64,000 nt of DNA from an uncultured Eubacteriales bacterium (GTDB taxonomy: Bacteria > Bacillota_I > Bacilli_A > RF39 > UBA660). How positions within the stretch are numbered: the first letter of the stretch is position 1; each line of letters starts with the position of its first letter. Below, piece after piece: positions 140-51,500 of this stretch. The notes under the pieces are model-generated. The model ran no database searches. It worked only from the letters and a program-made list of their open reading frames with translations, and was not told the origin of the DNA. The stretch spans positions 25,918 through 89,917 of the forward strand of contig CAUUHY010000003.1 in assembly GCA_963545265.1 (NCBI GenBank). The letters run 5' to 3'. Position numbers and translations under genes: made by a program.

Positions 140-436
140 TTGGGGCTAAAAAATAATTTGGATCCACAAAAGACAAGAATTGTAATGAATTCTAATTTTG
201 CTATTCTTTATGAAAAGGATGAAGATAAAATTAAGATAGCAGATTTATTATTTAACACAAAAATAGAAAATCATGAGCAAGTTATAGATATAGAAGATGA
301 AGTTGCATTACAAATTAATCTTGCTTTAAAACAGATTTCAGAAGATAAAAGAGTAGAATTATTAAATTTAGATGAAAATCAAAAAGATATGTATGAAAAA
401 GCATTAAAAGCAGAAATTAATATAAGAAAAAAATAA
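140..436 (+). CDS. hypothetical protein (98 aa), acidic/coiled-coil-like
   Basis: ORF track; no recognisable motif; upstream AT-rich promoter-like region. Confidence 0.35.
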   Translation: MGLKNNLDPQKTRIVMNSNFAILYEKDEDKIKIADLLFNTKIENHEQVIDIEDEVALQINLALKQISEDKRVELLNLDENQKDMYEKALKAEINIRKK

Positions 437-489
437 CTATTGTTTACTAAGTTATAATTTTGTATACTTAAAATAAGGAGGAAAAAACA

Positions 490-912: not shown

Positions 913-917
913 TAAAA

Positions 918-949
918 AAAGATAGAATTTTCTATCTTTTTATTTTTTT
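918..949 (+). terminator. rho-independent terminator
   Basis: aaagatagaa-ttt-tctatcttt stem-loop followed by T-run. Confidence 0.6.
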
Positions 950-967
950 ATGTTATACTTTTAGTAT

Positions 968-1462
968 ATGAAGAAAAGAATAATAAATTTATTTTTAGTT
1001 TTGGGAATCATGCTAATAACAGCTTCTTTTTTATTCAGTAAAACTAATCAAATTAAGTTAAAAAAAGTTAAAACTAGTAATAATTATCAGTTTTCTATAA
1101 ATGAAAAATACGAAAAAAATGATAAAACTAAAGTTAATGATTTATCTGATATGGTTTATTTTGATAAAGAAAATTTTAAAATAATTACAGTTTTTGTAGA
1201 TAGTAAAAGCACTTATAAAAATGATTTTAATTTTTATAAAAAATATAAATTGGAAGACAATTCAAAAGATAAAGAGAATTTAGTAGTAAAAGAAGGTAAA
1301 AATTCTTACACTTTTACATTTACAAAAAATAATAAAACCTATTATATGAAGTGTTATTTGTTTGATGATAATGATACTTTTATGGAAGTTTTGATGTGGT
1401 CTTATAATGAAGAAGACTTGCAAGAATTTGATAAAATTATAGAAAGTAGGAAAAAACTATGA
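968..1462 (+). CDS. secreted/membrane-anchored hypothetical protein (164 aa)
   Basis: N-terminal hydrophobic signal/anchor (LFLVLGIMLITASFLF); ORF track. Confidence 0.4.
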   Translation: MKKRIINLFLVLGIMLITASFLFSKTNQIKLKKVKTSNNYQFSINEKYEKNDKTKVNDLSDMVYFDKENFKIITVFVDSKSTYKNDFNFYKKYKLEDNSKDKENLVVKEGKNSYTFTFTKNNKTYYMKCYLFDDNDTFMEVLMWSYNEEDLQEFDKIIESRKKL

Positions 1463-2355
1463 AAATCTTAAATAAAATAGTAATGTTTATATTTATTGTT
1501 GTGTTTGTTTTATTAAGTAATTTATATATTTTTAAATTAGTGAACAATAACGAAAACATAAGAAAAAATGTAGAAAAAATAGAATATGCTAAAAATAATA
1601 AAAATTTTGTTTATGAATTTTTTAAAGAACTTGGTGAATATGAAGTAGTAAATATTGATAAAAAAATAGATGAATTTTTAATTGATGCTATCAATAATAA
1701 AGATGCTATTATAGATAGAGAATATTTAAAAGATAAATTAAAATTAGAAAAAGTTGATAAATATTTTTATGAACAAACCGAAGTAGAAAAAAAGATATTA
1801 AAACAAATAAAAAGATATAAAGTTGGTTTGTTTAAAGAAATATATAAGATAGATTTAAAAGAAATATTTATTGTAATAGTAGTAATGCTTATATTTATGT
1901 TTATTATGTTTATGTTAATGAATAGATCAGTATCTAAAACTTTTTCTAATATTGCAATTGTATTTTTTGTTATTTTTCTTTTAAATTTAATAGTTACATT
2001 TGTTCCAAAATATATAGCGTTTGTTGGTAATATATGGGCAAGTTATTTAAATAATTTACTTTTTATGTATTCAGAATATATGAAAGAATTAACTTTATAT
2101 ATATTAATATCTTTAATTTTTATAATGCTTTTATTAGTAGTTTTATACTTTATAAATTTATATAGAATTAAGAAAAAAGGAATAGTAACAGAAGATAATT
2201 TTTTAGATAAGTATGAAGAAAAACTTCCTGTAAATATAGATGAAAATCTAGAAGAGCCAAAAGAGGAAATTAAAGAAGAAAAAGAAATAAAAAAAGTAGT
2301 TAAAAAGACAAATAAGAAAAATAAAAATACTAAAAAGAATAAGGAGAAAGAATGA
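1459..2355 (+). CDS. membrane protein with Lys-rich C-terminal tail (298 aa)
   Basis: ATGA overlap with upstream gene; N-terminal TM plus central TM cluster; KKNKNTKKNKEKE tail. Confidence 0.4.
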   Translation: MKILNKIVMFIFIVVFVLLSNLYIFKLVNNNENIRKNVEKIEYAKNNKNFVYEFFKELGEYEVVNIDKKIDEFLIDAINNKDAIIDREYLKDKLKLEKVDKYFYEQTEVEKKILKQIKRYKVGLFKEIYKIDLKEIFIVIVVMLIFMFIMFMLMNRSVSKTFSNIAIVFFVIFLLNLIVTFVPKYIAFVGNIWASYLNNLLFMYSEYMKELTLYILISLIFIMLLLVVLYFINLYRIKKKGIVTEDNFLDKYEEKLPVNIDENLEEPKEEIKEEKEIKKVVKKTNKKNKNTKKNKEKE

Positions 2356-2663
2356 AAGCAGAATATTATGTGGTTTTATTAATACTTATAATTATATTAT
2401 TTACAGTATTAAAAATTAATAAATCAGATTTTAGTTTAAATATGAATAAACTATTAGAATATCTTGGTGGTAAAGACAATATAATAGATACGAGTTACAA
2501 TATGTCTAGATTTATAGTTACTTTAAAAGATATATCTATAGTAAATAAAGAAGGAATACAAAAGTTAGGTGCTAAAGGGATAGTAGAAATAGATAATAAA
2601 TTGAAAATTGTTTTAGGTAGAGATTCAAAAGAATTAAAAAAATTCATAGATGATATTAAATGA
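2352..2663 (+). CDS. membrane-anchored PTS EIIB(Glc)-like domain protein, active-site Cys not conserved
   Basis: LGGKDNI...SRFIVTLKD...KLGAKGIVEI matches the EIIB(Glc) fold signature (LGGKENI...CITRLR), but the CITRLR position reads YNMSRF; N-terminal TM; ATGA overlaps both neighbours. Confidence 0.45.
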   Translation: MKAEYYVVLLILIIILFTVLKINKSDFSLNMNKLLEYLGGKDNIIDTSYNMSRFIVTLKDISIVNKEGIQKLGAKGIVEIDNKLKIVLGRDSKELKKFIDDIK

Positions 2664-3346
2664 AAATAGTTATTAGTTTATTGCCAGTACTTTTACTTAC
2701 TTATTATATTTATAAAAAAGATAAACATAAAGAATCTTTATATATGATAATATTCTTAATTTTGGGTGGAATATTTAGTGCAATATTTTCATATGCATTA
2801 AGTGAATTTACCAAAAATATAGTAGTAGATAATTTAGTTTTTAAGAATATAGTTTTTATTGGATTTAAAGAAGAATTTATTAAATTTATAGTATTATTTT
2901 TAATATGTTTTAATGCATTAGAGTTTGATGAAATATATGATTCTATAGTTTATTCTACGTTTTTATCTTTAGGTTTTATTTTTATAGAAAACATAATATA
3001 TATAAATACTTTAAATATTAATTTTATAGATATTGTTTTAAGATCTATTATGTCTTGTGGAGTTCATTTTGCTTTAGGAGTTACAATGGGATACTTTATA
3101 GGATACGCTAAAGATAATCAAATAAATTATAAATATTTTAGTTCTGTTACTAATATCTTTTTAGCTTTTTTAATACCTAGTATTTTACATGGAATATATG
3201 ATTTACTTATTTCTTTAAGTATAAAATATAATAATATAAGTTATTTTGTTCCTTGTTATGTTATGATTGTGTTTATTGTTTCTTATTTTATGTTTAATAA
3301 ATATTTAAGTCTTAGAAACAATAATTTTGTATCATTTACTAACTAG
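2660..3346 (+). CDS. PrsW-like intramembrane protease family protein
   Basis: Polytopic; motifs GFKEEFIKF (EExxK), GVHFALG (FxxxH-like), LHGIYD (HxxxD), characteristic of the PrsW/CPBP-like family. Confidence 0.45.
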   Translation: MKIVISLLPVLLLTYYIYKKDKHKESLYMIIFLILGGIFSAIFSYALSEFTKNIVVDNLVFKNIVFIGFKEEFIKFIVLFLICFNALEFDEIYDSIVYSTFLSLGFIFIENIIYINTLNINFIDIVLRSIMSCGVHFALGVTMGYFIGYAKDNQINYKYFSSVTNIFLAFLIPSILHGIYDLLISLSIKYNNISYFVPCYVMIVFIVSYFMFNKYLSLRNNNFVSFTN

Positions 3347-3372
3347 GAGTATAATTTTGAATAGGTGATTTG

Positions 3373-4068
3373 ATGAAAAAGAAAATATTAATTATAAGTT
3401 TCATAATCGTTTTTGTTATAACAATATTTAGTGTTTTTTATTTCCTTTTTTTTAGAAGAAAAAATGCTTTTGAAAAACTTGATTTAACTAAAGTAGACAA
3501 TTTGATGTTTGTAGCTCATCCAGATGATGAAATGCTGTGGGGTGGAAGAGAACTTATTAAAAACAAATATCTTGTAGTATGTATTACTTGTGGAACAAAC
3601 AAAAGAAGAGTAAAAGAATTTAAAAAAGTAATGAAACAAGTAGATGATCAATATTTAATGTTAGGTTATCCAGATAAGATTATGAATATGAGAAGTAATT
3701 GGAAAAACGAATATGCTTCTATAAAACAAGATGTAGAAAGAATCTATAATCTAAAAAATTGGAAAAAGGTAGTAGTGCATAATCCGATGGGAGAATATGG
3801 ACATATGCATCATAAAATGACTAGTAAAATTGTTACAGAAGTAGTTGATCATAAAAAACTTTATTATTTTAATATGTATAAAAGAAAATCTATTATAGAT
3901 TATAACGATCCTATGCCAAAAGAAGACTTGGAAGAGAAGAAAAAAATATTATCGATTTATAAATCACAAGGATTTATAAAGAAAATGTTTTATCATATGA
4001 TAGCTTTTGAAAAGCTAATAACTTATGAAGATTGGATAAAAAATGAGCAATTTAAACAAAAAAGATAA
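3373..4068 (+). CDS. PIG-L/LmbE-family N-acetylglucosaminyl deacetylase
   Basis: FVAHPDDEMLWGG motif (the HPDDE zinc-binding signature of PIG-L/LmbE); N-terminal TM anchor; ATG at 3373 preferred over TTG at 3370. Confidence 0.7.
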   Translation: MKKKILIISFIIVFVITIFSVFYFLFFRRKNAFEKLDLTKVDNLMFVAHPDDEMLWGGRELIKNKYLVVCITCGTNKRRVKEFKKVMKQVDDQYLMLGYPDKIMNMRSNWKNEYASIKQDVERIYNLKNWKKVVVHNPMGEYGHMHHKMTSKIVTEVVDHKKLYYFNMYKRKSIIDYNDPMPKEDLEEKKKILSIYKSQGFIKKMFYHMIAFEKLITYEDWIKNEQFKQKR

Positions 4069-6517
4069 GTTTAATATAGCTATAATTATTATAGCTTTTT
4101 TAATTTTTACAATAATAATAACTAGATTTACTAACTATTATGGATCTTTACTTGATTGGGAAGCTCAACATATAGCTATACCAAATACTTTTAGAACATT
4201 ATTTTATCAAAATTTAGAATTTTTACCTGATTTTGTTTTAAATATAGGAGCAGGTCAAAATATTTATTATTTATCATATTATGGGCTTTTAAATCCATAT
4301 ATTTTAATTTCTTATCTTTTTCCATTTATAAAAATGGTGGATTTTATATCTCTAATTGGAATATTAATACCCATATCTTCAACTATTTTGATATATATAT
4401 GGTTAAGAAAAAGATATGATGAAAAGATAAGTTTTATGTCTAGTATTTTGTTTATGTTTTCAATGTCTTTATCTTTTCATTCACATAGACATATTATGTT
4501 TATTAATTATATGCCTTTTTTGTTAATGGGTCTTTTTGCTATAGATGAAAAGTATGATAAGAAAAAAAGTTCTTTATTAGTATTATCAATATTTTTAATA
4601 GCGATAACTAGTTTTTATTATTCTATATCAGCATATATAGTTTTAATATTTTATTATATTTTCAAATATATAGAAGATAATAAAAAAATAGTTATAAAAG
4701 ATTTATTTATAAGACTTATAAAATTATCTTTAAATTTTATACATGGAATTCTTTTTAGTGCAATTGTATTACTTCCAACTGCAGCTGTAATAATAAACGG
4801 AAGAGAAAAAACTACTTTAGCAATAAAATTTTTAGATACTTTAATTCCTAAATTTAATGCCTTATATTTTTTATATTCTCCTTATGGAATAGGTTTAACT
4901 GTAATTGCGATAGTAGCTATACTTTATGCTTTAATATCAAAAGATTTAAAATACAAGTTTTTATCAATAATATTATTTTTAATATTACTTTTCCCGGTAT
5001 TTAATTATATATTAAATGCTACTATGTATATTGATGCTAAAATTTTAATACCATTTTTACCACTTGTTATAGTTTTAATAGCTAATTTTATAAAAAACGT
5101 AACTGATAATTTAATAACTAACAATGAATTTATTTTTATAATAGCAATTACTAATTTATGTATAATGAGTTCTATTATATATATATATATTGATTTAATG
5201 ATTTTAATTATAATTTTATTTTTATATAAGAAATTTAATAAGAAATTTATATTATATTTTATAATGTTATTTGCAATAATTATATCGATAATATTTTCTT
5301 TAAATGATCCGTTGTTAAACAAAAAAGAATATGATAGAGATTATAAAACTTTAAAAAATATAGTTAATTATATAAGAAAAAAAGATAGCGATTTATATAG
5401 AATTGCAATAGATTATAAAAATGAAGGATTTATAAATCAAATATTTGATAATTCGTCTGTTTATACATCTACAATATATTCTTCATTAAATAATAAAAAT
5501 TATAGTAATTTTTATTATGAAGAGTTATTAAATAATATAAAACATAGAAATAGAGTAATCACTACAACTACAACTTCCGATTATTATTTAAATAGTTTAT
5601 CTAATAAATATGTAGTTAGTAAAAAAAATTTAATTAATAAAAAGTTAATAAAAAAAATAGATTCATATAATATTTATTTAAATGAAGATAGTAAATATAT
5701 GTTTTATCTTAGTGATAAGTTAATAAGTGAAGAAAATTATGATAAATTAAAATATTATGAAAAGCCATTAGCATTAATGAATTATGATGTAGTAAATAAA
5801 TCAAATGATAATGTTAATTTTAATATAGAAAAAATAGAAAATATTAATTTAATAAAAATTGGTGAATATCAAATAGACAAAATTTTAAAATATAGTATAG
5901 ATTTAAAAGAAGTTAAAAATTTATTTATTAGGATAAATATGTATGATTCCCCTTCGTGTAAAATTGGAGATAATTATATAGATATTAATAATATTAGAAA
6001 TAAATTAACTTGTAAAACTTGGAAATATCATAATAAAAATTATAGTTTTGATTATTTTGTCACTTCAGATAAATTAAATTTAAAACTTAAAAATAGTAAA
6101 TATTATATAAAAGATTTTGAAATTTATGAAATTAAAAATTTTTCAATCGATAAAAAAGAAAAAGTAAATATAGCATATAAAAATTCTATATTTTATGGAG
6201 AAGTTAATTCTGATAAAGAAAAATACTTTATAACTACTATTCCTTATGATAAAGGTTTTAAAGTATTAATAGATGGTAAAGAAGTAAAAATAGAAAAGGT
6301 AAATAAGGGATTTGTTGGATTTAAAGTTTTAAAAGGAAAACACAAAGTTATAATTAAATTTAATGCTCCTTTAAAAAAAGAAGCGTTAATAATAACTTTA
6401 GTATCTTTATTTGTATATATATTTTTAATATGGAAGGATCAAAATAATGAGAAGTTACTTGGAAGTGAACTTAAACAATATAAGAAAAAATTTACAAGAA
6501 ATAAGAAGAATAACTAA
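4043..6517 (+). CDS. yfhO: YfhO-family polytopic membrane protein (putative glycosyltransferase/flippase-coupled glycosylation of teichoic acids)
   Basis: 824 aa; more than 10 N-terminal TM helices followed by a large C-terminal soluble domain; size and topology typical of YfhO; located in a cluster with GT2 and GtrA genes. Confidence 0.55.
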   Translation: MSNLNKKDKFNIAIIIIAFLIFTIIITRFTNYYGSLLDWEAQHIAIPNTFRTLFYQNLEFLPDFVLNIGAGQNIYYLSYYGLLNPYILISYLFPFIKMVDFISLIGILIPISSTILIYIWLRKRYDEKISFMSSILFMFSMSLSFHSHRHIMFINYMPFLLMGLFAIDEKYDKKKSSLLVLSIFLIAITSFYYSISAYIVLIFYYIFKYIEDNKKIVIKDLFIRLIKLSLNFIHGILFSAIVLLPTAAVIINGREKTTLAIKFLDTLIPKFNALYFLYSPYGIGLTVIAIVAILYALISKDLKYKFLSIILFLILLFPVFNYILNATMYIDAKILIPFLPLVIVLIANFIKNVTDNLITNNEFIFIIAITNLCIMSSIIYIYIDLMILIIILFLYKKFNKKFILYFIMLFAIIISIIFSLNDPLLNKKEYDRDYKTLKNIVNYIRKKDSDLYRIAIDYKNEGFINQIFDNSSVYTSTIYSSLNNKNYSNFYYEELLNNIKHRNRVITTTTTSDYYLNSLSNKYVVSKKNLINKKLIKKIDSYNIYLNEDSKYMFYLSDKLISEENYDKLKYYEKPLALMNYDVVNKSNDNVNFNIEKIENINLIKIGEYQIDKILKYSIDLKEVKNLFIRINMYDSPSCKIGDNYIDINNIRNKLTCKTWKYHNKNYSFDYFVTSDKLNLKLKNSKYYIKDFEIYEIKNFSIDKKEKVNIAYKNSIFYGEVNSDKEKYFITTIPYDKGFKVLIDGKEVKIEKVNKGFVGFKVLKGKHKVIIKFNAPLKKEALIITLVSLFVYIFLIWKDQNNEKLLGSELKQYKKKFTRNKKNN

Positions 6518-14925: not shown

Positions 14926-17796
14926 ATGAAAAATAAGCAGTATTTAGTTTTATTAATTGGATTTTTAATGTTAGTGATGTCTTTTTTCCTTTTTAAAAAA
15001 AATGATAGTATAACAACTAAAAAATTAAAAGAGTTAAATTATGATGTAACTTATCGGGAAGCTTTTCCAGATAAAAATTTAAGAAGAGGTATAATACTTT
15101 GTATTATGCGTAATAAGTGTGGAGAAGATGATTATAATTCTGGAGCATATGAATATGAAAAATATAATGATTCTATCCAAAAATGGCCTTCAACTAGTGA
15201 ATATTTTAATAAGTATTATCAAACTATAATTTTTAATTCTAATTATGGTCCAACTATATACGATCATCAATTAAATCTAAAAGAAAGAGAAAAAATAAAA
15301 AAAGAAGATTTAGAAAAAATAAAGGTTTTGTTGTCTAATGAATTTACTAAAAATGTTAATAGTTTACAAGGAATAGAATATTTAACTAATTTAAAAGCAG
15401 TTGTCTTGCATAAAGTTATGCAAGAAGATATAGATTTTTCATATAATAAAAAATTAGAAAAATTATATATAAATGTTGTAACTGATGATGCATATCCTAG
15501 ACCTATAAAAAATATAAATCTTAATCAAAATATTAAACTAAAAGAATTAGCTATAAAATTAGATAAAAATGATAGCATTTTAGACTATTCAAATTTAATA
15601 AACTTAGAAACAATAATATTACAAGAAAGTAAAATTAAAACTATTCTTTTACCAAGTAGTGCTAAAATAGTAGATTTAAGTAATAATAATATAAAAGAGA
15701 TAAATTTAAAAAATAATTCAAATAATATCGAAAAACTTAATATGCAATCAAATCCAATAACTAATATAAATATAGATAATTTAGTTAAATTAAAATATAT
15801 TAACCTTAATAATACAAAATTAAAAAATAATATAAATTTTAGTAAAAATATTGATATAGAAGAAGTATATATTGGATCTCAAAGTACAATCAAAATAGAA
15901 AGCTTAGATTTTAGCCATAATTTAAAATTAAAAAAATTGACATTAAGTGCAGAATTAAAAAATTTAAATCTAGATAATGTAACAAAATTAGATTTTTTAT
16001 ATTTAATAAATAATTCTATAAATGAACTTGATTTAACAAAAAATCCAAAACTTGGTGAAGCTGGAGGAAGCATAAGTTTAGGTGATAATCATATATCTAA
16101 TTTAAAAGTGAATTCTAATTTAAGTGGTGGAACATATCAAACTTTAAAATTTAAAATAAAGAAAAATGCTTATCAAAATATACCAATTTATTATAATAAT
16201 CAAAAAGTAGAGTTAAATAATAATACTAGTTTTATAAAAAAAGATGGTAAGTATTTATTTACAACTTTAGGAACATTTAATGAAAGAGCAGAAAAAACAC
16301 TAAATAATTTTACATATTCAGCTGGTGTTGTTGTTGAAGTAGAAGCAGGTGAAGAAGCAAGTTTTAATCCTGAAATAGATCAAAAAGATTATATGCCACT
16401 TTTAAATGAAGAAATAACAAAAGAAGCGATAAAGAAGATGATTACTAATTTACCAGACAATATAAAAGAATTTGAAATTGTTGATCCAAAACCAACTATA
16501 TTTAATAGTAATGCTAAACAAAAAATTAGAGTAAGAGTAACATTTAGTGATGATACATTTAAAGAATTTGATGTACCGGTAAATATTTATAAAGTAAATT
16601 ATATTCCACCAACTGGAAGAATTATTCCAAATCCAGTAGAAGTTATAGAAGAAAAAGCAGTAAATATTTCAATTACTAGAACGTATGAAAAAGAAAATTA
16701 TATAGATGAAGTTAATTTAATAAAATATGTACAAGATGAGATAATTAATTATCATCATGATAATGTACCTAGTGGAGTAGTATTTAATGGAAATGGATAT
16801 AATGGAGTAATAAATTATATTTTTACTGGAACAGAAGAAGAACATACATTTGTTATTTCTCATTCGGAAGATACAAAAAGTGGAGGACCTGGTTGGAGTG
16901 ATAGAATTCAAATAAAATTGTTAAGGGATACAGATGGTGATGGAATACCTGATATTAAAGATGATGATAAGGATGGAGATGGATATTCCAATGCATTAGA
17001 AATAGCTAAGGGAAGTGATCCGTATAATAAAAATTCAACACCAGATATGACAAAGAAAAAGCAATTAGATGAACTTGTAAAAGATCTTGAAAAACTAATT
17101 AATAATACTAAAGATAATCCATTTAATAATAAAAATAAACTAGATGTAGATAATCTGAAAAATAATATTTTACCTGATAAAGAAAATAAAAAGAATGATA
17201 TGAAAAATTCATATAATGATAGTACTTCTGATACAGATTTAGAAAATTTAAAACAAAAAGTAGAAAAAGAAATAGATGATTTAAAAAAAGAAATAAATAA
17301 ATTAAGAGATAAAGCTAATTTTAATGAGTTAGATAAAGAAATATCAAAAGATATAGAAGAAGATATTTATACACCTGAATCAGTTAAGCCATTAAAAGAT
17401 AAGATAGAAGAAGCAAAAAATATTTCTAGAGATACAGCAACACAAGAAGATGTTGATAATATGACTAAGATTATTAAAAATTTAAAAGATAAATTAGTTA
17501 TAGATAGAACAAAACTTAAAAATAAGATAGATGAGTTAGAAAAAGCGATAGAAGAAAATAAATGTATAACAGAAGAATGTAAAAAAACATTAGAAGCAGC
17601 AAAAGAATTATATACTAAAACAAATATAACTAAAGAAGAAATGTTAGATATGATAAAAAGAATAGATTTATTATTAAATAAAAAAATTATATTTGAAAAT
17701 CCTAAGACAGGTATTTTATCATATACTTTAGTAATAATATTTATAATTTTAATTAGTGTATTTTTAATAAAACAAAAGAAAAATTATATAAGATAA
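14926..17796 (+). CDS. large surface protein with leucine-rich repeats, Ig-like region, TSP3-like Asp-rich calcium-binding motifs, coiled coil and C-terminal TM anchor
   Basis: Signal/TM; LRR consensus (L..L.L..N.I..I) from about aa 200 to 400; DTDGDGIPDIKDDDKDGDGYSNALE; K/E-rich coiled coil; terminal hydrophobic helix; N-terminal LNYxxTYxEAFPDK motif shared with 24830 and 26808. Confidence 0.6.
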   Translation: MKNKQYLVLLIGFLMLVMSFFLFKKNDSITTKKLKELNYDVTYREAFPDKNLRRGIILCIMRNKCGEDDYNSGAYEYEKYNDSIQKWPSTSEYFNKYYQTIIFNSNYGPTIYDHQLNLKEREKIKKEDLEKIKVLLSNEFTKNVNSLQGIEYLTNLKAVVLHKVMQEDIDFSYNKKLEKLYINVVTDDAYPRPIKNINLNQNIKLKELAIKLDKNDSILDYSNLINLETIILQESKIKTILLPSSAKIVDLSNNNIKEINLKNNSNNIEKLNMQSNPITNINIDNLVKLKYINLNNTKLKNNINFSKNIDIEEVYIGSQSTIKIESLDFSHNLKLKKLTLSAELKNLNLDNVTKLDFLYLINNSINELDLTKNPKLGEAGGSISLGDNHISNLKVNSNLSGGTYQTLKFKIKKNAYQNIPIYYNNQKVELNNNTSFIKKDGKYLFTTLGTFNERAEKTLNNFTYSAGVVVEVEAGEEASFNPEIDQKDYMPLLNEEITKEAIKKMITNLPDNIKEFEIVDPKPTIFNSNAKQKIRVRVTFSDDTFKEFDVPVNIYKVNYIPPTGRIIPNPVEVIEEKAVNISITRTYEKENYIDEVNLIKYVQDEIINYHHDNVPSGVVFNGNGYNGVINYIFTGTEEEHTFVISHSEDTKSGGPGWSDRIQIKLLRDTDGDGIPDIKDDDKDGDGYSNALEIAKGSDPYNKNSTPDMTKKKQLDELVKDLEKLINNTKDNPFNNKNKLDVDNLKNNILPDKENKKNDMKNSYNDSTSDTDLENLKQKVEKEIDDLKKEINKLRDKANFNELDKEISKDIEEDIYTPESVKPLKDKIEEAKNISRDTATQEDVDNMTKIIKNLKDKLVIDRTKLKNKIDELEKAIEENKCITEECKKTLEAAKELYTKTNITKEEMLDMIKRIDLLLNKKIIFENPKTGILSYTLVIIFIILISVFLIKQKKNYIR

Positions 17797-22733: not shown

Positions 22734-24116
22734 ATGGAATTAAAATATATTTATGATAATATTCAAAATCCTTTGGATAATAATACTATAAGATACATAT
22801 ATGATAATTATGGATTTGTTCCTACTTATAATATAGTTGTAGGATTAGGTACTAAACCTAATACGAGGTTTGATATTCCTCAAAGAGATAAATATAATAA
22901 AATGTTATTTGATATATGGAAAAATAGTATTTTAAATTTATCTATGGAAAGAATAGAGGAATTAGAAAAAAGATTTCTTTACAAAGATATTAGAAGAATC
23001 AGACATAGATTATCTATGCCATTAGATGAAAAATATAATTTAAATACTACTTTGGGTATATATGATTTTTTAACTGAAGAAAAAATGGATAAAGCTTATT
23101 TTTGTATGCCTGAAAATTTACTTAATCATAGGTTTGTTCATACTATAAGTGAAAAAGTAGATTTATCAGAAGACACTTATTTTGATGTGGAACATAGACT
23201 TTATGTAAATATAGCTAATGAAAACGTTTATAAGTTAGCTCATAAATTAGTAGAGAAGTTTGGTGAAAAAAATCTACCATTTTATTTTAAATTTGAAGAT
23301 TTAAATAATAGAAAAGATGGATTTGTAATATATTCTGATACTAAAAATTTAGCTAAATATTCAGAATGTTTAGATGAAGTATATAGTGAAAATAAAGAAC
23401 TTAGAATGAGTACTTATTCACCATTAATGTTTGGTGGAAGAATAAGTGATTATTATTGTATAGGAGACGAACCAAACATTGAAGATAAAAGTTATTCTTT
23501 TAATACTTTAAGAGCAGAATGTATAGATAATGCGATGACAAGAAGTATTAGAAGATGGATGTATGAAAATCAAGATGTAGATTTAAAAAGAAATGGTAAA
23601 ATAGTTAAATTTAAAGATTATATGACTGATAAAATTGTGGATTTATTAATTAATGATATATATTCAGGAGAAAATAAATATAAAAATTATCATAATTTAC
23701 ATGAAAATGTATTTTCAGCTAGAAATATTGGAGAATTAAAAAAATCTTTAAAAGTTGGAGTAGATGGATATATTAACGGTAAAAAGTTAGAGCCTATGAA
23801 AGTATATGAAAATCCATGGTTAGATGAAGCAAGAGATAAGCCATCTAAATTACAAGGTATATTTAGTATGGGAATAGATCCTACTAAAAATACAAGGCCT
23901 AATTTTTTAGGGTCTGTATCACCTAGTATTATTGATGAACTTATAAAAGTAGAGCTTGGTAGTAAAATCATTCATAGATTTGCAGATTATAGTGGTTATT
24001 TTAAACACTATTTAATAGAAGAATTAAGAAAAAATAATATAGATGTAAATAAGCCATGCTTTAATATTGGGACAGAAGAAAAATTTAATAATCCTGATTA
24101 TTGGCATCAAATATAA
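22734..24116 (+). CDS. hypothetical protein (460 aa) occupying the usual mutL position; not MutL
   Basis: No GHKL ATPase motifs; no signal peptide; start 1 nt after mutS stop. Confidence 0.4.
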   Translation: MELKYIYDNIQNPLDNNTIRYIYDNYGFVPTYNIVVGLGTKPNTRFDIPQRDKYNKMLFDIWKNSILNLSMERIEELEKRFLYKDIRRIRHRLSMPLDEKYNLNTTLGIYDFLTEEKMDKAYFCMPENLLNHRFVHTISEKVDLSEDTYFDVEHRLYVNIANENVYKLAHKLVEKFGEKNLPFYFKFEDLNNRKDGFVIYSDTKNLAKYSECLDEVYSENKELRMSTYSPLMFGGRISDYYCIGDEPNIEDKSYSFNTLRAECIDNAMTRSIRRWMYENQDVDLKRNGKIVKFKDYMTDKIVDLLINDIYSGENKYKNYHNLHENVFSARNIGELKKSLKVGVDGYINGKKLEPMKVYENPWLDEARDKPSKLQGIFSMGIDPTKNTRPNFLGSVSPSIIDELIKVELGSKIIHRFADYSGYFKHYLIEELRKNNIDVNKPCFNIGTEEKFNNPDYWHQI

Positions 24117-24755: not shown

Positions 24756-24765
24756 ATATATATTT

Positions 24766-24795
24766 ACATCAAAGATGATTCTTTGATGTTTTTTA
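24766..24795 (+). terminator. rho-independent terminator
   Basis: acatcaaag-atgattc-tttgatgt followed by tttttt. Confidence 0.65.
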
Positions 24796-24829
24796 TTATA
24801 AATATGTTATTATATAGATAATATAGGAG

Positions 24830-26746
24830 ATGATAATGAATAAAAAAATTTCAAAGATATTTTTACTTCTTTTAATAACTTTTGTACTAATTTCTAGTTT
24901 AGCAATGTTACTTAAAGAAAAAAATACTAAAATTAATAATAAGCATCTTAAATTAAATTATGAACTTAGTTATGAAGAAGCTTTTCCAGATAAAGAATTT
25001 AGAAGATTAATTTTATCTATGTTATATAAACATTCTGAAGAGAAATGGGGAGAAAGAGAAGATAGAGAAATATATGGGGATCTTTATAGTGCTCTTAAAA
25101 TCACTGGTGATGCAGCAAATTCTGGAATTACAAGTGCTATTACAGATGAGGAATTAGAAAGATATAGTAAACAAAAAATAGATAAAAATTTTTTAGATAA
25201 AGTTCTTGTTTTGCACCCTAATTCAGAAGTTAAAAATTATCAAAATATTATTAATTTAACTGGAATTGAATATTTGAAAAATGTAAAAAGAATAGTAATA
25301 GCTAATTCTAAAATAAAAGAAGCAGATTTTAGTCAAAACCAAAAATTAGAAACTTTATTTTTAACTGAAAAATTTCATTCTACATATCAAATTCTGGACA
25401 TAGAGGGAACTTCAATACTTGAAAGAGTTAATATAAAAAGTAATGAAAATTTGAAACATTTAATTTTAAATTTTAATCCTAATAAAGAAAATACAGTTGA
25501 TTTAAGTGGTAATCCTAATTTAGAAGCTTTATATATAATAAAAAGTAACCTAAAAGAAATAGATTTAACTCATAATCCTAATTTAAATAGTTCTGATATA
25601 AATCTTCAAGGTAATAAACTTCAAAGTATTAAAGCTAACAGTCCTAGTGAAAATTTTAGATATGGAGCGAGTGAACAAAAAATAACTATTGAAGTTGATC
25701 AAGGAGTTCCTATAAAAATACCTTTAAAATTTAATGATACAGAATCTTATTTAGAAGGGACTGGATTTACTAGAGAAAATGACGTATATACTTTTAATCA
25801 AGTAGGAACACATACATATAATTTTTATAATAGACAAAGAGATTATAGTGGTACGGTAGAAGTTACTGTAACTGGAGGGGAAGCAAAAAACTTTACTCCT
25901 TTAATAACTAATGATAGTAGATGTTATGTAAATGAAAGGTGTAGTTTAGCTGATAATATTTATAATATACCAAGAGATGCTAATATAGTATCAGTAACAT
26001 CTTGTGATCATGGAAATGCAACAGGAATAATTTTAGTTCCTAATCAAAAAGGACTAGGAACTTGTGATGTTAAAATTACTTTTGGTGATGGTTCAACGAA
26101 AACATATAAAGTTAAAATACCAGTATTTGAAAAAAATATAAAAGAAATAGAACCATTTAAACCAATTTATCCAAAAAGTAAGTATATAGAAGGAGAATTT
26201 GCAAAAAATTTATTGCTTAGTTATTCTGAAGTACAAAATGAAAGAGATGATTATTTAAATATATTAAATAAAAAATCAAAATGTAATTATGAAACATTTA
26301 TTTGCGATAATATAAGGTATAAAACAGAAGCTTTTTATCGATCTATAGGAGATAAAGCAATTTCTGATAATCCAATACCAGGAAAAGCTTATGATTATTT
26401 TTCAGTAAATAATACAGCTATATTAGATAGTAAAGTTAAAGTATATAATAGTAAACAGATGGAACAAGTTGTTAGAAATTATCCTAATGGATCAAGTCTT
26501 ATAGATTGGCAAGGGGATGAAAATCAAAAAATATTTTATATTTATAATCAGTGGTTAAATGGAGTTCCTAATATATTAGAAACCACAATTCTAAGAGATA
26601 CAGATCATGATGGAATTCCTGATATAGATGATGAAGATGATGATAATGACGGAGTAAGTGATGCACAAGAAGTACTTGATAAAACTGATCCAAAAGATGC
26701 TAGTAGTTTTAAAGTAACAAAAATATGTTACAAAGTTAAAGGATAG
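24830..26746 (+). CDS. LRR/TSP3-motif surface protein, paralog A
   Basis: Signal/TM; LNYELSYEEAFPDKEFRRL motif; LRR block; DTDHDGIPDIDDEDDDNDGVSD; C-terminal about 185 aa identical to paralog B. Confidence 0.55.
   Translation: MIMNKKISKIFLLLLITFVLISSLAMLLKEKNTKINNKHLKLNYELSYEEAFPDKEFRRLILSMLYKHSEEKWGEREDREIYGDLYSALKITGDAANSGITSAITDEELERYSKQKIDKNFLDKVLVLHPNSEVKNYQNIINLTGIEYLKNVKRIVIANSKIKEADFSQNQKLETLFLTEKFHSTYQILDIEGTSILERVNIKSNENLKHLILNFNPNKENTVDLSGNPNLEALYIIKSNLKEIDLTHNPNLNSSDINLQGNKLQSIKANSPSENFRYGASEQKITIEVDQGVPIKIPLKFNDTESYLEGTGFTRENDVYTFNQVGTHTYNFYNRQRDYSGTVEVTVTGGEAKNFTPLITNDSRCYVNERCSLADNIYNIPRDANIVSVTSCDHGNATGIILVPNQKGLGTCDVKITFGDGSTKTYKVKIPVFEKNIKEIEPFKPIYPKSKYIEGEFAKNLLLSYSEVQNERDDYLNILNKKSKCNYETFICDNIRYKTEAFYRSIGDKAISDNPIPGKAYDYFSVNNTAILDSKVKVYNSKQMEQVVRNYPNGSSLIDWQGDENQKIFYIYNQWLNGVPNILETTILRDTDHDGIPDIDDEDDDNDGVSDAQEVLDKTDPKDASSFKVTKICYKVKG
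25958..26479 (+). repeat. 522-bp exact direct repeat, copy 1 (inside paralog A)
   Basis: Identical to 27933..28454 by direct comparison (offset 1975 bp). Confidence 0.8.
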
Positions 26747-26807
26747 TATAAACTATTCTTTTTTTCTTTTTCTAATAGTGTTATTATATAAAAAATAGGA
26801 GACTTTT

Positions 26808-28736
26808 ATGAAAAGTTCTAAAAAATTGCTAAATTTTATAATAATTTTATTGTTATTTCTAAGTTTTTTAAGTATATTTTTTATAAGTAAAAATAATAAA
26901 ATATTAAAAAAACAAGTTAAACTAAATTATGACAAAACTTACGAACAAGCTTTTCCAGATAAAGAGTTTAGAAGATTAATACTTACAATGCTTTATAAAT
27001 ATAATGAACGTGATTATGGTTTAGAGAGGAAGAGAGAGCATTTTGATACTTTTTATCATGCAATTAAACTTACAGGAGATTTATGGGATGCAGGTATAGA
27101 TAAAGCATTAACTGATGAAGAATTAAATAGATATAGTAAAGATAAGTTAGATAAGAATTTTCTTGAAAAAATAGTGGTAATACATACTAATCCAGATACT
27201 GAAACATATAAAAAAATTGCTGATTTAGCTGGTGTAGAGTATTTGCCAAATTTAGCAGTAGTTGCTATATCTGGTTCTAATATAAAATTAGCGCATTTTA
27301 ATTATAATCCTAAGTTAGAAACTTTATTTTTACCGGAGAGATTTTACCAAAGTCATTTCAAACATTATGTTCAAGGAACTTCTAAATTAGATAATGTAGA
27401 TCTTAGAAACAATAGGAATTTAAGACATCTTATATTAAATTTTGAACCGCATAAAGAAAATACTATAGATTTAAGTGGTAATCCTGATTTAGAAGCTATA
27501 TATATAGAAAGTAGTTCTTTAAAAGAAATAGATCTAACTAATAAAGGAAGATTAATGGATGATAAAAATATAAATTTAGAAAATAATAATCTTCAATTAA
27601 TTAAAGCTGATAAAGCTAATCCAGGATATAAATTTGGTGCAAGTAATCAAAAAATAAAAGTAAATGCTGAAAAAGGAGTTCCTATAAGGATACCATTAAA
27701 AGTAAATAATTATGATGCTTATTTAGAAGGTAGTGGATTTACTAGAGAAAATGACGTATATACATTTAATCAAGTAGGAACACATTATTATAATTTTAAT
27801 GATGATGACAGAGACTATAGTGGTACAGTAGAAGTTAATATAATTGGAGGGGATTCCAAAAATTTTACTCCTTTAATAACTACTAATGATAGTAGATGTT
27901 ATATAAATCAAAGCTGTAGTTTAGCTGATAAAATTTATAATATACCAAGAGATGCTAATATAGTATCAGTAACATCTTGTGATCATGGAAATGCAACAGG
28001 AATAATTTTAGTTCCTAATCAAAAAGGACTAGGAACTTGTGATGTTAAAATTACTTTTGGTGATGGTTCAACGAAAACATATAAAGTTAAAATACCAGTA
28101 TTTGAAAAAAATATAAAAGAAATAGAACCATTTAAACCAATTTATCCAAAAAGTAAGTATATAGAAGGAGAATTTGCAAAAAATTTATTGCTTAGTTATT
28201 CTGAAGTACAAAATGAAAGAGATGATTATTTAAATATATTAAATAAAAAATCAAAATGTAATTATGAAACATTTATTTGCGATAATATAAGGTATAAAAC
28301 AGAAGCTTTTTATCGATCTATAGGAGATAAAGCAATTTCTGATAATCCAATACCAGGAAAAGCTTATGATTATTTTTCAGTAAATAATACAGCTATATTA
28401 GATAGTAAAGTTAAAGTATATAATAGTAAACAGATGGAACAAGTTGTTAGAAATCATGGCAATGGAACTGGTGGAAAATTTATAAATTGGCAAGGTGATG
28501 AAGAAGAAAAAATTTATTATATTTTTCCTATTCAAAGTAATGTAGAAACGCTAGAAAACCCAAAATTTGAAACCACAATTCTAAGAGATACAGATCATGA
28601 TGGAATTCCTGATAAAGATGATGAAGATGATGATAATGATGGAATAAGTGATGCTCAAGAAGTACTTGATCAAACTGATCCAAAAGATGCTAGCAGTTTT
28701 AAAGTAACAAAAATATGTTATAAAGTTAAAGGATAG
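26808..28736 (+). CDS. LRR/TSP3-motif surface protein, paralog B (tandem duplicate)
   Basis: Same architecture as 24830..26746; 522-bp block 100% identical; nearly identical 3' UTR. Confidence 0.55.
   Translation: MKSSKKLLNFIIILLLFLSFLSIFFISKNNKILKKQVKLNYDKTYEQAFPDKEFRRLILTMLYKYNERDYGLERKREHFDTFYHAIKLTGDLWDAGIDKALTDEELNRYSKDKLDKNFLEKIVVIHTNPDTETYKKIADLAGVEYLPNLAVVAISGSNIKLAHFNYNPKLETLFLPERFYQSHFKHYVQGTSKLDNVDLRNNRNLRHLILNFEPHKENTIDLSGNPDLEAIYIESSSLKEIDLTNKGRLMDDKNINLENNNLQLIKADKANPGYKFGASNQKIKVNAEKGVPIRIPLKVNNYDAYLEGSGFTRENDVYTFNQVGTHYYNFNDDDRDYSGTVEVNIIGGDSKNFTPLITTNDSRCYINQSCSLADKIYNIPRDANIVSVTSCDHGNATGIILVPNQKGLGTCDVKITFGDGSTKTYKVKIPVFEKNIKEIEPFKPIYPKSKYIEGEFAKNLLLSYSEVQNERDDYLNILNKKSKCNYETFICDNIRYKTEAFYRSIGDKAISDNPIPGKAYDYFSVNNTAILDSKVKVYNSKQMEQVVRNHGNGTGGKFINWQGDEEEKIYYIFPIQSNVETLENPKFETTILRDTDHDGIPDKDDEDDDNDGISDAQEVLDQTDPKDASSFKVTKICYKVKG
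27933..28454 (+). repeat. 522-bp exact direct repeat, copy 2 (inside paralog B)
   Basis: Identical to 25958..26479. Confidence 0.8.
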
Positions 28737-28799
28737 TATAAACTATTCTTTTTTTCTTTTTATAATAGTGTTATTATATAAATAAGGAGAAATAAATTT

Positions 28800-30311
28800 A
28801 TGGAAAAGAAAAATAATATAGTTAAAATACTTATATTTGTAGGTATTGGTTTATTAGCATTATTAGGAATTATCTTTTTTATGACTAAGATAGTATTTAA
28901 AAATAATTCTGTTAAAACAAGTACTTCTAAAGCATTTTTTATAAGAAGTTCTAAAGAAAATAAATTTGCTATATACGGAAGAGATGGAACTAAGAAGACT
29001 GATTTTATTTACAAAGAAAAAGGTGAATTCATTAATGGTTATGCAGTTGTTACATATTCTGATAACACAAAAGCTATAGTTAATGAAAATGGTAAAGATG
29101 TAATTAAAAAGGGTGAATACAAGTACATATTTTATAGTGGAGGACATTTTTTACTTCTAACACAAGAAAAAAACAAACTTTTGGATCGTAATTTAAAAGT
29201 TGTTAAAGAAGGAAAAAACTTAACAATGCTTTCTACATATTTAAAAGAAATGTCTATAGTAGCAGATGAGGCTAAAATATATTTTTATTCATCAAATGGA
29301 AAATTAATGTATGAAATAGAAGGTGAAAAATACATATCATCTTTTGATATTGTTGCAAGGGAAAACACTGTAGATAAAATAGCATCAGTTAACTATAAGA
29401 AGAAGAACTATGTATTTGATTTAAAAAATGAAAAATTTGTTGTTTCAGTAGATGCTGGATTAACAATAGGTGCTGTACTTACTGATAAAGTTAATCGTAA
29501 CTCTTATGTTGTTTTTGGAGATAAAGATTATATAGTTTCAAATAATAAAGTAGTAGCAGAAAAGGAAAAATCTTCTATTAGAGTAGAAAACTATAATATT
29601 ATTTATAAGAGTCAAGTTATATTAAATAATAATGGCGAAGTTGGAATAGAATTTGATAAAGAATCTAAAATATCATTTAATAGTCCAAATAGCTATTTAA
29701 GAGAGTTGAAAGATTCTAAAAAGATAGAAGTTTATTCAGATGGTAAGTTAAAAACTACAATAGATGGAATTTTAACTAGATCAGGTATTGCTAGTGGATA
29801 CGTTAAAGATCCATATTATGTAATAAGAAATAAAGATAAATATTTGCTTATTGATAAAGAAGGTAAAACACTTATGTCTTATGACTTTATATTGGATGTA
29901 AATATTAGTGCAAATATGGTTAAAGTTAAAGATGCAGGTAAATACTATTACGTAGATCTTAACAATAAAGAACTTACACCTAAGTCAGATTCTGAAAGTT
30001 TTGTTAAGTTAGGAAATAGATTTTATTTTTCTAAAAAAGATAAGTTAATAGATTGTAAAACAAACGAAGAATTAAATTATACTTTATATAGAATTAGTAG
30101 AACTGGAAGATATGAGCACAATGATGATGATAAATATGCTATATTAAGAAATAATAAAACTTCTAAATATGCTTTATTTAATACGAAAGAAAATAAAGTA
30201 GTAGGAGAATATGATAAACCAATTAATTTACAAGAAAATTATTATGAAGTTGATCACGAATATTATTCTTATGTAAACTACAAAGCATTTTATAATAATA
30301 AAACTAAATAA
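28800..30311 (+). CDS. membrane-anchored hypothetical protein (503 aa), beta-rich repeats
   Basis: RBS aaggagaaataaatttatg; N-terminal TM; repeated K/G/Y-rich segments. Confidence 0.4.
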   Translation: MEKKNNIVKILIFVGIGLLALLGIIFFMTKIVFKNNSVKTSTSKAFFIRSSKENKFAIYGRDGTKKTDFIYKEKGEFINGYAVVTYSDNTKAIVNENGKDVIKKGEYKYIFYSGGHFLLLTQEKNKLLDRNLKVVKEGKNLTMLSTYLKEMSIVADEAKIYFYSSNGKLMYEIEGEKYISSFDIVARENTVDKIASVNYKKKNYVFDLKNEKFVVSVDAGLTIGAVLTDKVNRNSYVVFGDKDYIVSNNKVVAEKEKSSIRVENYNIIYKSQVILNNNGEVGIEFDKESKISFNSPNSYLRELKDSKKIEVYSDGKLKTTIDGILTRSGIASGYVKDPYYVIRNKDKYLLIDKEGKTLMSYDFILDVNISANMVKVKDAGKYYYVDLNNKELTPKSDSESFVKLGNRFYFSKKDKLIDCKTNEELNYTLYRISRTGRYEHNDDDKYAILRNNKTSKYALFNTKENKVVGEYDKPINLQENYYEVDHEYYSYVNYKAFYNNKTK

Positions 30312-48582: not shown

Positions 48583-51500
48583 ATGTTAGATAATAAAAAA
48601 ATATTTGAAGTTTTAAATATAGATAATGATAAATATATGGATGCTATAAAATTTACAAAAATTAAGCATAAAACTAAAGATAAAATTTTATTAGTTTATA
48701 TAACATCAAAGATAAGATTAGAAATAGATTTTTATCATAAATTAAAAGAAGGATTTAAATCTCTTTTTTTAGTTAATGAAGTAGAAATATTTTTAGAAGT
48801 AGATGATTATAAAGATGATTACTTTAAAGATTATTATGAAGAGTTAATAGAAGATTATAAAGATTTATCTATTTATAGATATTTAAGTAGTATTTATAAA
48901 AAAGATGGAGTTTATAAAATAGATGTAATTAATGAAGTTGAAAAAGAAAAAATAAAAGAAGTAGCAGAGCATTTAAGTGAAGAATTAAAAAAACTTGGTT
49001 ATTTATATGATATAGATGTTTATATTAATGAAGAGAAAAATAAACTTTTAGATAAAGAATTAGAAAAAGAAAGAGAAACTAGTTTAAATAGTGTTAGTTT
49101 TAGTGATAATAAACCTAGTTTTACACCATCTTCTCCTATAATGAGAACTAATTTAAGAGAGATGAAAAACGATTATGAAATAACACCTTTAAATAATTTA
49201 AGAGTAGATCCAAATGCTGACAATATATACTGTGTTAGAGGTATTGTTTTTGAAGTTGAATTTCGTGAAACTAAAAAAGAAAATGATATATATATATCTA
49301 AGATAAACGATGATACAAACTCTTTAGTAATTAAAACATTTGTTAAGAAGTCTGATAAAGAAATGCAAAGTTTTTTAGGAAAATTATTAAAAGTTGGGAA
49401 TAATATATGTGTGAGGGGAGTACTTTCACATGATCCATTTGATAACGGTGAACTTAGCTTAATGTTTAGAGAAATAAAACAAATTGAAATAGTAAAAGAA
49501 GATATAAAAGAAAAAAGAAAATCTAGAGTAGAACTACATGCTCACTCTAAACTTTCTGTTTTAGATTCTTCGATTGATCCTAAAGATTTAGTTAAAAAGG
49601 CATATAAACTTGGACATAGAGGAGTTGCTATAACAGATCACGATGGAGTTTTAGCTTTTCCGGAAGTTTTTAAAGAAGTAAAAGCAATAAATAAGACTTT
49701 AAGTGAAGATGAAAAATTTAAAGGATTATATGGGACAGAATTAGTACTTGTAGATGATTTTGTAGAAATAGTAATAAATCCTAAAAGATATATTAAAAAT
49801 CAAGAATATGTAGTGTTTGATGTTGAAACAACAGGACTTGATGCTAAAGATAAAAATCAAATGATCGAAATAGGTGCTGTTAAGATAAAAGATGGAAAAA
49901 TTATAGATAGATTTGATGAACTTATTTCTTGTTCTTATCCACTTGATGAAAAAATTGTTTCTTTAACTAATATAACTGATGAGATGTTAAAGGGTAAAAG
50001 AAGTGAAGAAGAAGTTGTTAAATCTTTCTTAGAATTTGTCTCTAGTAGTATCTTAGTTGCGCATAATGCTAGATTTGATATGTCGTTTTTAAATTATGCT
50101 ATTGAAAAATATAATTTAAATCCAGTTAAAAATGATATTTTAGATACACTTATCTTATCTAGATATTTAACACCTAATGAAAGATATCATAATTTATCTA
50201 CTGTAACTAAAAGATATGAAGTAAACTTTAGTGAAGATAATCATCATAGAGCAGATTACGATGCAGAAGCTACTGCTTTAGTACTTTTAAAAATGTTTGA
50301 TAAATTAGATGTTGAAACTATAGAAGAGTTAAAGAAGATAAAAGTTCAAGATAAAACTATTATTTTTAAAAATAAAATAGAGATGTTAAATGATACTTTT
50401 GTTGTATTTGATACCGAAACAACAGGTCTTAATGCAGTAAACGATAAACTTATTGAAATAGGTGCAGTTAAGATAAAAAACGGAGTTATTATAGATAGGT
50501 TTGATGAACTTATTGATCCAGGTATTCCAATACCACAAAAGATTACAGAAATTACTACTATTACTGATGAAATGGTAAAGGGAAAAAGAAAAGAAAAAGA
50601 AGTAATTAAAGACTTTATGGACTGGGTTAAAGATTATCCGATGGTTGCTCATAATGCTCATTTTGATGTTTCTTTTATTAAAAATAGTTTAGCTAATAAC
50701 AATTATAAAACAATAGAAAATCCAGTAATTGATACTTTGGTTTTATCAAGATTTTTGGATAATGAAGAAAAAAGACACTCATTATCTGCAATTACAAAAA
50801 GATATGAAATAGAATTTGATGAAGATAATCACCATAGAGCAGATTATGATGCAGAAGGTACAGCTTTAGTGTTTCATAAGATGTTACAAAAAATTGCCCC
50901 AAGAGATATTTTATATTTAGAAGATTTACCAAATATCGTATCAAAAGATGATATACATAAATTTGGTAGAACTTATCATATTAATTTATTAGCTCAAAAT
51001 AGAGAAGGTTTGAAGAACTTATTTAAGATAGTGTCTTTTGCTAATACAAAATACTTTTATAAAGGTGAAGCTAGAATACTTAGAAGTGTTTTAGAATCTT
51101 TAAGAGAAAATATTTTAGTATCTTCTGGATGTTATCAATCTGAAATATTTGTTGAATCTAGATATGTATCAGAAAACGAACTTGATACAATGATTGATTT
51201 TTATGATTATGTCGAGGTTCAACCTCCAGTTTGTTATTCACAGTTAATTGATTCTGGAGATTTTAACTCTATAGAAGAAATAGAAGAAAAAATTAAATAT
51301 ATTATCGAAAGAGTTAAAGCAAGAGGAAAAATAATCGTTGCAACTGGAGATGTACATACTTTAAATAAAGATGATGAAATATATAGAAAAATCTTAATTA
51401 ATCAAAAAGTACCAGGTGGTGGACGACATCCATTAAATAGAAATAATATTAAAAATATACCTAATACTTACTTTAGAACTACTGAAGAGATGTTAGAAGA

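Follow-up and report, generated by a model that had tools for sequence, protein, structure and literature searches.

Probable recent gene conversion between two tandem genes for putative internalin-like surface proteins of an uncultured bacterium from the human gut

In the lpl tandem cluster of Staphylococcus aureus, located on nuSa-alpha, a conserved sequence within every open reading frame (ORF) is described as the site of homologous recombination. ORFs exchange their 5' and 3' variable regions, and strains of the species differ in copy number and in chimeras; the intergenic region travels with the 3' region, the unit being a 3' variable region, the spacer and the 5' region of the next ORF (Tsuru & Kobayashi 2008, PMC2568036). 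In Helicobacter pylori, intragenomic recombination (gene conversion) of the adhesin paralogues babA, babB and babC leads to chimeras and to genotypes that vary from isolate to isolate, which was read as an adaptation of adherence to the host (PMC4552749). Here we describe a tandem array in an uncultured, human-associated bacterium with 24% GC, which has been deposited for example as "uncultured Eubacteriales/Clostridiales/Bacilli bacterium". Two genes of this array, called A and B in the following, share a block of 522 nucleotides (nt) base for base. They lie in a stretch of 64 kb (contig CAUUHY010000003.1), which was analysed as a whole and which we call the window. In our view this identity probably results from a recent, non-reciprocal intragenomic gene conversion, in which the core of A replaced the so-called b-type core of B, and such conversions are probably recurrent at the locus.

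By analogy, the lpl cluster is the closest described pattern. In both cases there are tandem paralogues for surface proteins (putative ones in the window) of a host-interaction type, anchors inside the ORFs and, here, the same spacer after A and after B; shuffled combinations of variable regions and differences in copy number within one species are seen here as well. There are also differences. The family in the window is unrelated (leucine rich repeats (LRR), a TSP3 repeat, a membrane helix and no lipobox) and has only two to three copies; it has three anchors instead of one central region; and its 5' halves are near-invariant with a mosaic 3' half, in which a very recent, perfect tract has been caught. 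The bab genes are alike in that gene conversion occurs between paralogues of one genome. However, they are dispersed and encode Gram-negative outer-membrane proteins, whereas the genes of the window are tandem, and their conversion is coupled to phase variation by CT repeats, while no such repeat is present here. Nearest in protein type are the internalin clusters of Listeria (e.g. inlGHE versus inlC2DE), with their internalin-type cap and LRR domain. Tandem internalin genes of Listeria recombine: inlH consists of the 5' part of inlC2 fused to the 3' part of inlD, and this fusion is paralleled by an A::B chimera in one of our loci (L031, see below). On the other hand, the C-terminal half of the proteins studied here (cysteine-containing beta module, core, TSP3 and the tail ICYKVKG) has no internalin counterpart, and the host is an uncultured gut commensal and not a pathogen. 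While the mechanism is already well known, the protein family is uncharacterised and belongs to an uncultured gut bacterium, and the example is clean and well delimited.

Coordinates below are those of the window, tract positions marked "nt" follow the numbering of gene A, and L-numbers denote the other loci that were compared. Note that the comparison sequences are short-read metagenome assemblies or metagenome-assembled genomes (MAGs) throughout, and that the window probably is as well. The main elements are:

24830..26746, + strand: gene A, an ORF of 638 amino acids (aa); putative donor of the converted tract
26808..28736, + strand: gene B, an ORF of 642 aa with the same architecture as A; putative recipient
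25958..26479, + strand: donor copy of the 522-nt block (nt 1129-1650 of A, aa 377-550)
27933..28454 (maximum) or 27960-28394 (minimum), + strand: recipient copy, i.e. the presumed converted tract, delimited by site-by-site comparison
25958..25984, + strand: left junction interval in A (nt 1129-1155), 27 nt in which this A allele does not differ from typical B alleles
26099..26419, + strand: variable core module in A (nt 1270-1590), an a-type allele
26420..26479, + strand: right anchor in A (nt 1591-1650), which encodes ...DSKVKVYNSKQMEQVV... and forms the right end of the tract
26575..26795, + strand: conserved 3' end of A with the spacer (TSP3 repeat, tail, stop codon, and the TGTTATTATATAA promoter-like motif and ribosome-binding site (RBS) of the next gene)
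28565..28785, + strand: conserved 3' end of B with the spacer before a gene for a 503-aa protein

An initial annotation, made from the window alone, had described the two copies of the block as identical base for base. Direct comparison of 25958-26479 with 27933-28454 confirms this: 522 of 522 bases match, and the block is maximal, with mismatches at 25957 and at 26480. The offset between the copies is 1975 nt, and the block is in frame in both genes, starting at codon 377 of A and codon 376 of B. The identity in the flanks is 52-92%, compared to 100% inside. In gene B, 1125 nt of B-type 5' sequence are followed by the A-type block and then by a B-type variable loop and 3' end. Both genes are on the same strand and separated by a spacer of 61 nt. 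Their N-terminal halves are diverged, as had been said; the aa identity, which had been given as about 60%, was measured as 50-62% (52-77% at the nt level, over the approximately 1100 nt of the 5' halves). The near identity claimed for the 3' ends and downstream spacers also holds, since 26575-26795 and 28565-28785 are 95% identical over 221 nt, comprising the last 150 nt of the genes and the spacer of about 50 nt. In all strains, A and B agree completely or almost completely in three intragenic anchors (approximately nt 1063-1269, nt 1591-1650 and nt 1903-1942), which flank the variable core and the variable loop; in the right anchor of the tract, 56-60 nt are identical between A and B in every strain. 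Chance can be excluded as the source of the block (522 consecutive matches, p far below 1e-40), because its central 321 nt are only about 68% identical between A and B in unconverted strains.

Across strains, gene A almost always has an a-type core. Gene B usually has a b-type core, which does not vary among 8 other strains (100% identity) and is about 68% identical to the a-type. The core of B in the window is 100% identical to that of its own A, 95.3-96.6% identical to A of other strains and 68.5% identical to the orthologous B, and among the A cores sampled that of the window diverges most (95-97% identity to the rest). Site by site, B of the window is B-like up to nt 1128, A-like at 104 out of 104 informative sites in nt 1156-1590, and B-like again from nt 1651. 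The left junction falls in the 27-nt run of A/B identity and the right one in the 56-60-nt DSKVKVYNSKQMEQVV anchor. From these alleles we take the b-type to be the ancestral core of B. Donor A keeps a core that is typical of A alleles, and a b-type core is absent anywhere in the 64-kb window, which indicates that the exchange was non-reciprocal, from A to B. Just upstream of the tract, B of the window has private changes, namely a 3-nt insertion (an extra Thr) and a Val-to-Ile substitution.

Seven assemblies besides the window (L001, L009, L035 to L038 and the contig with P0103) have an A-type core in B, and the core tracts are of four types, including that of the window. The tracts in other strains are:

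L001, L035, L038: A-type core in B, with junctions at nt 1186-1269 and nt 1591-1646
L009, L036: from nt 1111/1123-1155 through the stop codon to nt 1903-1942, with 820-826 identical nt
L037: A-type core in B, with junctions at nt 1209-1269 and nt 1903-1942
L034: tract limited to the variable loop
L003: short tract in the opposite direction, from B to A, at nt 1109-1233

All of the core conversions go from A to B (8/8 events, two-sided p ~0.008). In every genome with both genes on a single contig (6/6; the window, L001, L009, L035, L036 and L037) the core of B equals the A core of the same strain. In total, an a-type core in B was found in about 8 of 97 contigs that bear B, each time as a singleton allele; the unconverted allele P0116 occurs in 45 contigs. 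The 5' part of A is seen with a, b or c cores, and so is the 5' part of B; for the variable loop, no fewer than four types are seen (a, b, c and d). The view of A and B as mosaic paralogues under gene conversion or recombination, which the initial annotation had put forward, is thus supported at the population level, both by allele comparison and by the presence of several tract types. A class of alleles that looked like a b-core with an a-loop (P0299-P0305) was also considered as a product of conversion and was rejected, as it represents a fourth loop type.

A comparison among strains had been proposed as a check, and variation in both copy number and mosaic structure is found among the conspecific loci. 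At these loci, the flanking proteins are mostly 94-100% identical to those of the window, with MutS and NusA at no less than 99%. Most conspecific strains have a third paralogue, Z (795-800 aa), upstream of A, and thus the array Z+A+B. Overall, the arrays seen are A+B, Z+A+B, Z+A and Z+chimera, and the number of gene copies ranges from 0 to 3. The window and L001 have A+B without Z. In both, the spacer between A and the upstream gene for a 204-aa protein, p204 (24756-24829 in the window), resembles the p204-Z spacer on one side and the Z-A spacer on the other, with the join inside a TATTAT motif that the two have in common (compared to L005, 1497-1577 and 3966-4028), which suggests a junction left by a precise deletion of Z. 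In L027, Z+A is followed by the spacer that normally comes after B; L031 has Z and a single A-5'::B-3' chimera, which was found in two assemblies; and in L032 and L033, Z is accompanied by a single gene whose core and loop are of a third type ("c"). As for a possible origin of the c-type modules from Z, no more than about 118 nt at the very end of the c-type 3' region resemble Z (90-93%) more closely than A or B. Z alleles are of 75-100% identity, and in the 3' segments of A the proportion of synonymous differences (pS) reaches 0.3. Among sister species with the same flanking genes, L010 has no array and L011 has a single Z-like gene. A scan of the genome collection with NusA returned only sister species (no array; one Z-like gene), a scan of it with peptides of A found no relative, and a metagenome scan with the upstream 204-aa protein gave 4 loci only.

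Several copies are pseudogenes. There are nonsense mutations at codon 195 of A (L007, 4023-5939) and at codon 661 of Z (L006, 1578-3965), a 1-nt deletion in A (L036, 5024-6939) and a 2-nt insertion in B (L037, 6633-8545); for the L036 and L037 indels a sequencing error is possible. The loss of individual copies seems to be tolerated or favoured.

These observations could be brought together as follows. Homologous recombination between misaligned or sister copies, at the three conserved intragenic anchors, would move the core and the variable loop between paralogues. Resolution without crossover would give conversion tracts such as that of the window, and unequal crossing-over would give gene deletions and chimeras. 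The outcome would be what we see, that is, strains of one species with two to three copies and differing combinations of C-terminal modules, and two sister species with 0 and 1 copies. The recombination may well be of the RecA type, and selection on the exposed modules (by host immunity, phage or ligand specificity) may maintain the shuffling. Once about 500 nt are identical, the two genes should be a much better substrate for recombination, which could explain why converted pairs are always perfectly identical. Alternatively, converted alleles may be short-lived, with the loss of the b-type module being disadvantageous.

More tentatively, and with considerable doubt, one could see the array as a population-level system that shuffles modules of the membrane-distal C-terminal half, with the anchors as recombination joints, in an uncharacterised family of surface proteins of an abundant gut bacterium. 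A-to-B conversion would then be directional and frequent (about 8% of assemblies, always just happened), and selection by host IgA, phage or ligand would purge or renew the converted alleles. If this is true, module shuffling would be a commensal analogue of the switching of adhesins in pathogens, and it would be visible directly in metagenome time series.

Some of the observations weigh against gene conversion, and they are at the same time what speaks for its strongest competitor, namely an assembly artefact. In that case the true core of B would be of the b-type, and a short-read assembler would have collapsed the paralogous paths and threaded the A core through both genes. All converted B alleles are singletons, each on one contig, and wherever the comparison is possible they are perfectly identical to the resident, co-assembled A, with no divergence after conversion; a converted B allele that has diverged from its resident A was sought among the alleles and none was found. 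This perfect identity fits a very recent or self-reinforcing conversion, and it fits a collapse by the assembler equally well. The tract ends coincide with sequence shared by A and B, which is necessarily so under conversion and collapse alike. The "METAG-scaffold" naming style is common to all seven assemblies, besides the window, in which B has an A-type core. Finally, every locus comes from a short-read metagenome assembly, and the array does trouble assemblers. In other samples, contigs end within the array or beside it (at aa 388 of A in L028, aa 218 in L029, aa 500 in L008, approximately aa 531 in L038, and 111 nt before B in L034), so the initial annotation was right to call the locus an assembly hazard.

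Nevertheless, we consider an artefact unlikely. The left junction of the window lies in 27 nt of identity, and three other tracts end in anchors of 34-45 nt. The usual metagenome assemblers work with a final k of 55 or more, and anchors shorter than that count against a collapse of the graph. Assemblers do not normally merge paths of at least 321 nt as bubbles when these are 68% identical and equally covered, and random path errors would not be expected to point from A to B in each of the eight events. The "METAG-scaffold" style is also found in five unconverted or chimeric loci (L003, L005, L006, L031 and L032), and thus it yields unconverted loci too (L003, L005 and L006). The private changes in B of the window are immediately beside the tract. 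Moreover, there are independent products at the same anchors: the deletion chimera in two assemblies, and losses of B or Z with clean hybrid spacers. A simpler form of artefact, in which a single gene had been duplicated by the assembly, is excluded, since the two sequences are distinct for the greater part of the genes and many independent assemblies contain both A and B.

The initial annotation had linked the pattern to phase- or antigen-variable surface proteins. A programmed contingency locus, with high-frequency switching of expression or cassettes within a clone, would agree with tandem surface-protein-like genes, with mosaicism and with the recurrent pseudogenes (A in L007 and L036, B in L037, Z in L006). 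However, such a programme is very improbable here. Homopolymer tracts in and before the genes, including A7 at codon 5, are of constant length in 30 alleles, and TRF finds no tandem repeat array; in other words, no repeat tract speaks for phase variation, and neither does any invertible element. There are no inverted repeats flanking the promoters or spacers and no silent cassettes; A and B are both full-length, each with an RBS and a promoter-like motif. The pseudogenes arose from unrelated nonsense and indel mutations, and the frameshifts are not at long repeats.

Even less probable is an import, in which the a-type core of B would have come from another strain or species by homologous recombination and not from the resident A. 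Alleles are indeed exchanged between strains at this locus, as seen from the c- and d-type modules and from the allelic range of Z and of the 3' segments of A given above. On the other hand, B of the window matches the most divergent A core at every base of the block, and the five further genomes in which A and B share a contig show the same identity to the own A. Since the core of B equals that of the own A, while the divergence of A cores between strains reaches about 5%, the events appear to be intragenomic.

A recent tandem duplication of about 2 kb, which the initial annotation had also allowed for and which would have to be followed by very fast divergence outside the block, is hardly credible: while the genes are tandem, with a near-constant spacing (1969-1990 nt) and a near-identical 3' end and spacer, the synonymous divergence (dS) of their 5' halves is near saturation at 0.8-1.0, orthologues of both with near-invariant 5' halves are found among conspecific loci, and the ancestral core of B is b-type, so that this explanation is already refuted.

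A and B are instead ancient paralogues, because of this dS and because orthologues of both are present in about 100 conspecific metagenome assemblies. Between A and B, dS (Nei-Gojobori) is 1.0 in codons 1-125, 0.79 in codons 126-270 and 0.53 in codons 271-355; in unconverted strains it is 0.29-0.36 over the 3' half, and in the block of the window it is 0. The fall of dS towards the 3' end is a sign of repeated earlier homogenisation of the 3' half. Nucleotide diversity (pi) is highest in the exchanged region. In the 5' 800 nt of A and B it is 0.006-0.007, the same as in nusA (13-15 loci compared); it is 0.02-0.05 in the 3' segments of A and 0.18 in the core of B. The ratio of nonsynonymous to synonymous divergence (dN/dS) is 0.7-1.1 in the exchanged modules, compared to 0.4-0.5 in the LRR half, which would fit selection on the exposed part, either relaxed or diversifying, but does not prove it.

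Both proteins start with a hydrophobic N-terminal helix (aa 9-36) and the cap motif YEEAFPDKEFRRLIL, which are followed by the LRR domain. After it come, in this order, a conserved cysteine-containing beta-rich module, the variable core, the conserved stretch DSKVKVYNSKQMEQVV, the variable loop, the TSP3 repeat and the tail. Each protein has one calcium-binding repeat of the TSP3 type (Pfam PF18884, at or just below the cutoff), and the C-terminal tail ICYKVKG is invariant. An AlphaFold2 model of the whole protein, based on an alignment of 15 sequences, is confident for the LRR only (pLDDT 70-93 over approximately aa 45-260). The family profile matches Listeria InlJ (3bz5, E 4.5e-9), and the best fold matches of the model are the internalin domains of InlB, InlA, InlC and InlC2, with low TM-scores as the rest of the model is poor. 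After the LRR, where internalins have an Ig-like inter-repeat domain, aa 283-430 of the model are rich in beta strands, at a pLDDT below 50. When the C-terminal half was modelled alone (7 sequences), the mean pLDDT was 32, i.e. the exchanged module could not be modelled, and this region has no match in Pfam or NCBIfam except for TSP3 (TSP3_bac).

By sequence and Pfam check, there is no LPXTG, GW or WxL anchor, and the proteins end with ...TDPKDASSFKVTKICYKVKG. Because such a C-terminal wall anchor is missing, we would call the proteins internalin-like and not canonical internalins. Anchoring is probably by the N-terminal membrane helix, in which case the variable C-terminal half would lie distal to the membrane. 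Taken together, the membrane helix, the internalin-like LRR and TSP3 make it plausible that A and B are surface proteins. Full-length relatives are scarce. Among 1.84 billion representatives of clusters at 50% identity, just two other clusters align end to end; the remaining matches are generic LRR or TSP3. The window itself contains a distant fourth member of the family, 8 kb upstream of the array, which is too divergent to join the conversion:

14926..17796, + strand: 956 aa, including a TSP3 repeat; its N-terminal 270 aa match A/B at about 30% identity

If our interpretation is right, an AT-rich uncultured bacterium of the human gut diversifies a lineage-specific, internalin-like family by conversion, unequal crossing-over and gene loss at one hotspot. 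This would be a concrete example of a commensal that recombines within its own genome, at junctions that are defined and suited to PCR or long-read assays, and it would point to the C-terminal modules, and not to the LRR domain, as the part under diversifying pressure. In practical terms, the locus can serve as a strain marker, yet it is a trap for short-read assembly and for strain tracking that is based on orthology or single nucleotide polymorphisms (SNPs).

The array sits between mutS and nusA, and its edges and spacers show the following features:

24766..24799, + strand: terminator-like hairpin (10-bp stem) plus T-run, downstream of the gene for the 204-aa protein; 5' limit of the array
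24789..24829, + strand: spacer upstream of A, with the motif TGTTATTATATAG (a putative extended -10 box) and the RBS AGGAG
28800..30311, + strand: membrane-anchored protein of 503 aa, of no known family; it marks the downstream limit of the array, which is conserved, and follows another copy of the repeated spacer

The spacers share a repeat family, D7, with copies at 24789-24823, 26763-26797 and 28753-28787. Upstream of both A and B, in addition to the RBS of each gene, there is a repeated TGTTATTATATA(A/G) motif, which may be read as an extended -10 box. A generic promoter scan was uninformative in this AT-rich DNA (50 promoter-like hits compared to 52 expected), and so was a terminator scan. 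A T-run in the A-B spacer (after A, gene nt ~1930) has 13 T in L035 and L036 versus 7 T elsewhere. It is the sole length-variable homopolymer seen near the array, and it lies upstream of the promoter-like motif of B.

In L032, positions 1-4219 directly upstream of Z are occupied by prophage genes (a tail-fibre gene with Peptidase_S74, Gp10_C, and a lysin with Amidase_2 and CW_7), in the place that otherwise belongs to hopA1 and p204. The edge of the array may be a site of phage integration, or a replacement may have occurred there. As the lysin of this strain's prophage combines an amidase with a cell-wall-binding domain, its presence implies that the host has peptidoglycan.

Apart from the array, some other genes of the window stand out. 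The first gene after mutS, where mutL is often found, is 22734-24116 (+), which encodes 460 aa and matches Pfam HopA1 (E 4e-8), a family of type III effectors. In sister species whose MutS is 93-97% identical, this protein is 50-58% identical, and thus it evolves fast. At 39269-44101 (+), just upstream of the gene for a DnaE-type polymerase (pol) III alpha, there is an ORF of 1610 aa with only a weak HD-domain match. The DnaE-type gene (44849-47710, +) adjoins that for a PolC-type DNA polymerase III of 1643 aa (48583-53514, +). PolC has an apparent tandem internal duplication of the 3'-5' exonuclease domain, which is unusual for PolC: Pfam RNase_T matches it in two stretches, and direct repeats are found 588 nt apart (49856-49926 and 50444-50514, 85%; 50194-50304 and 50782-50892, 79%).

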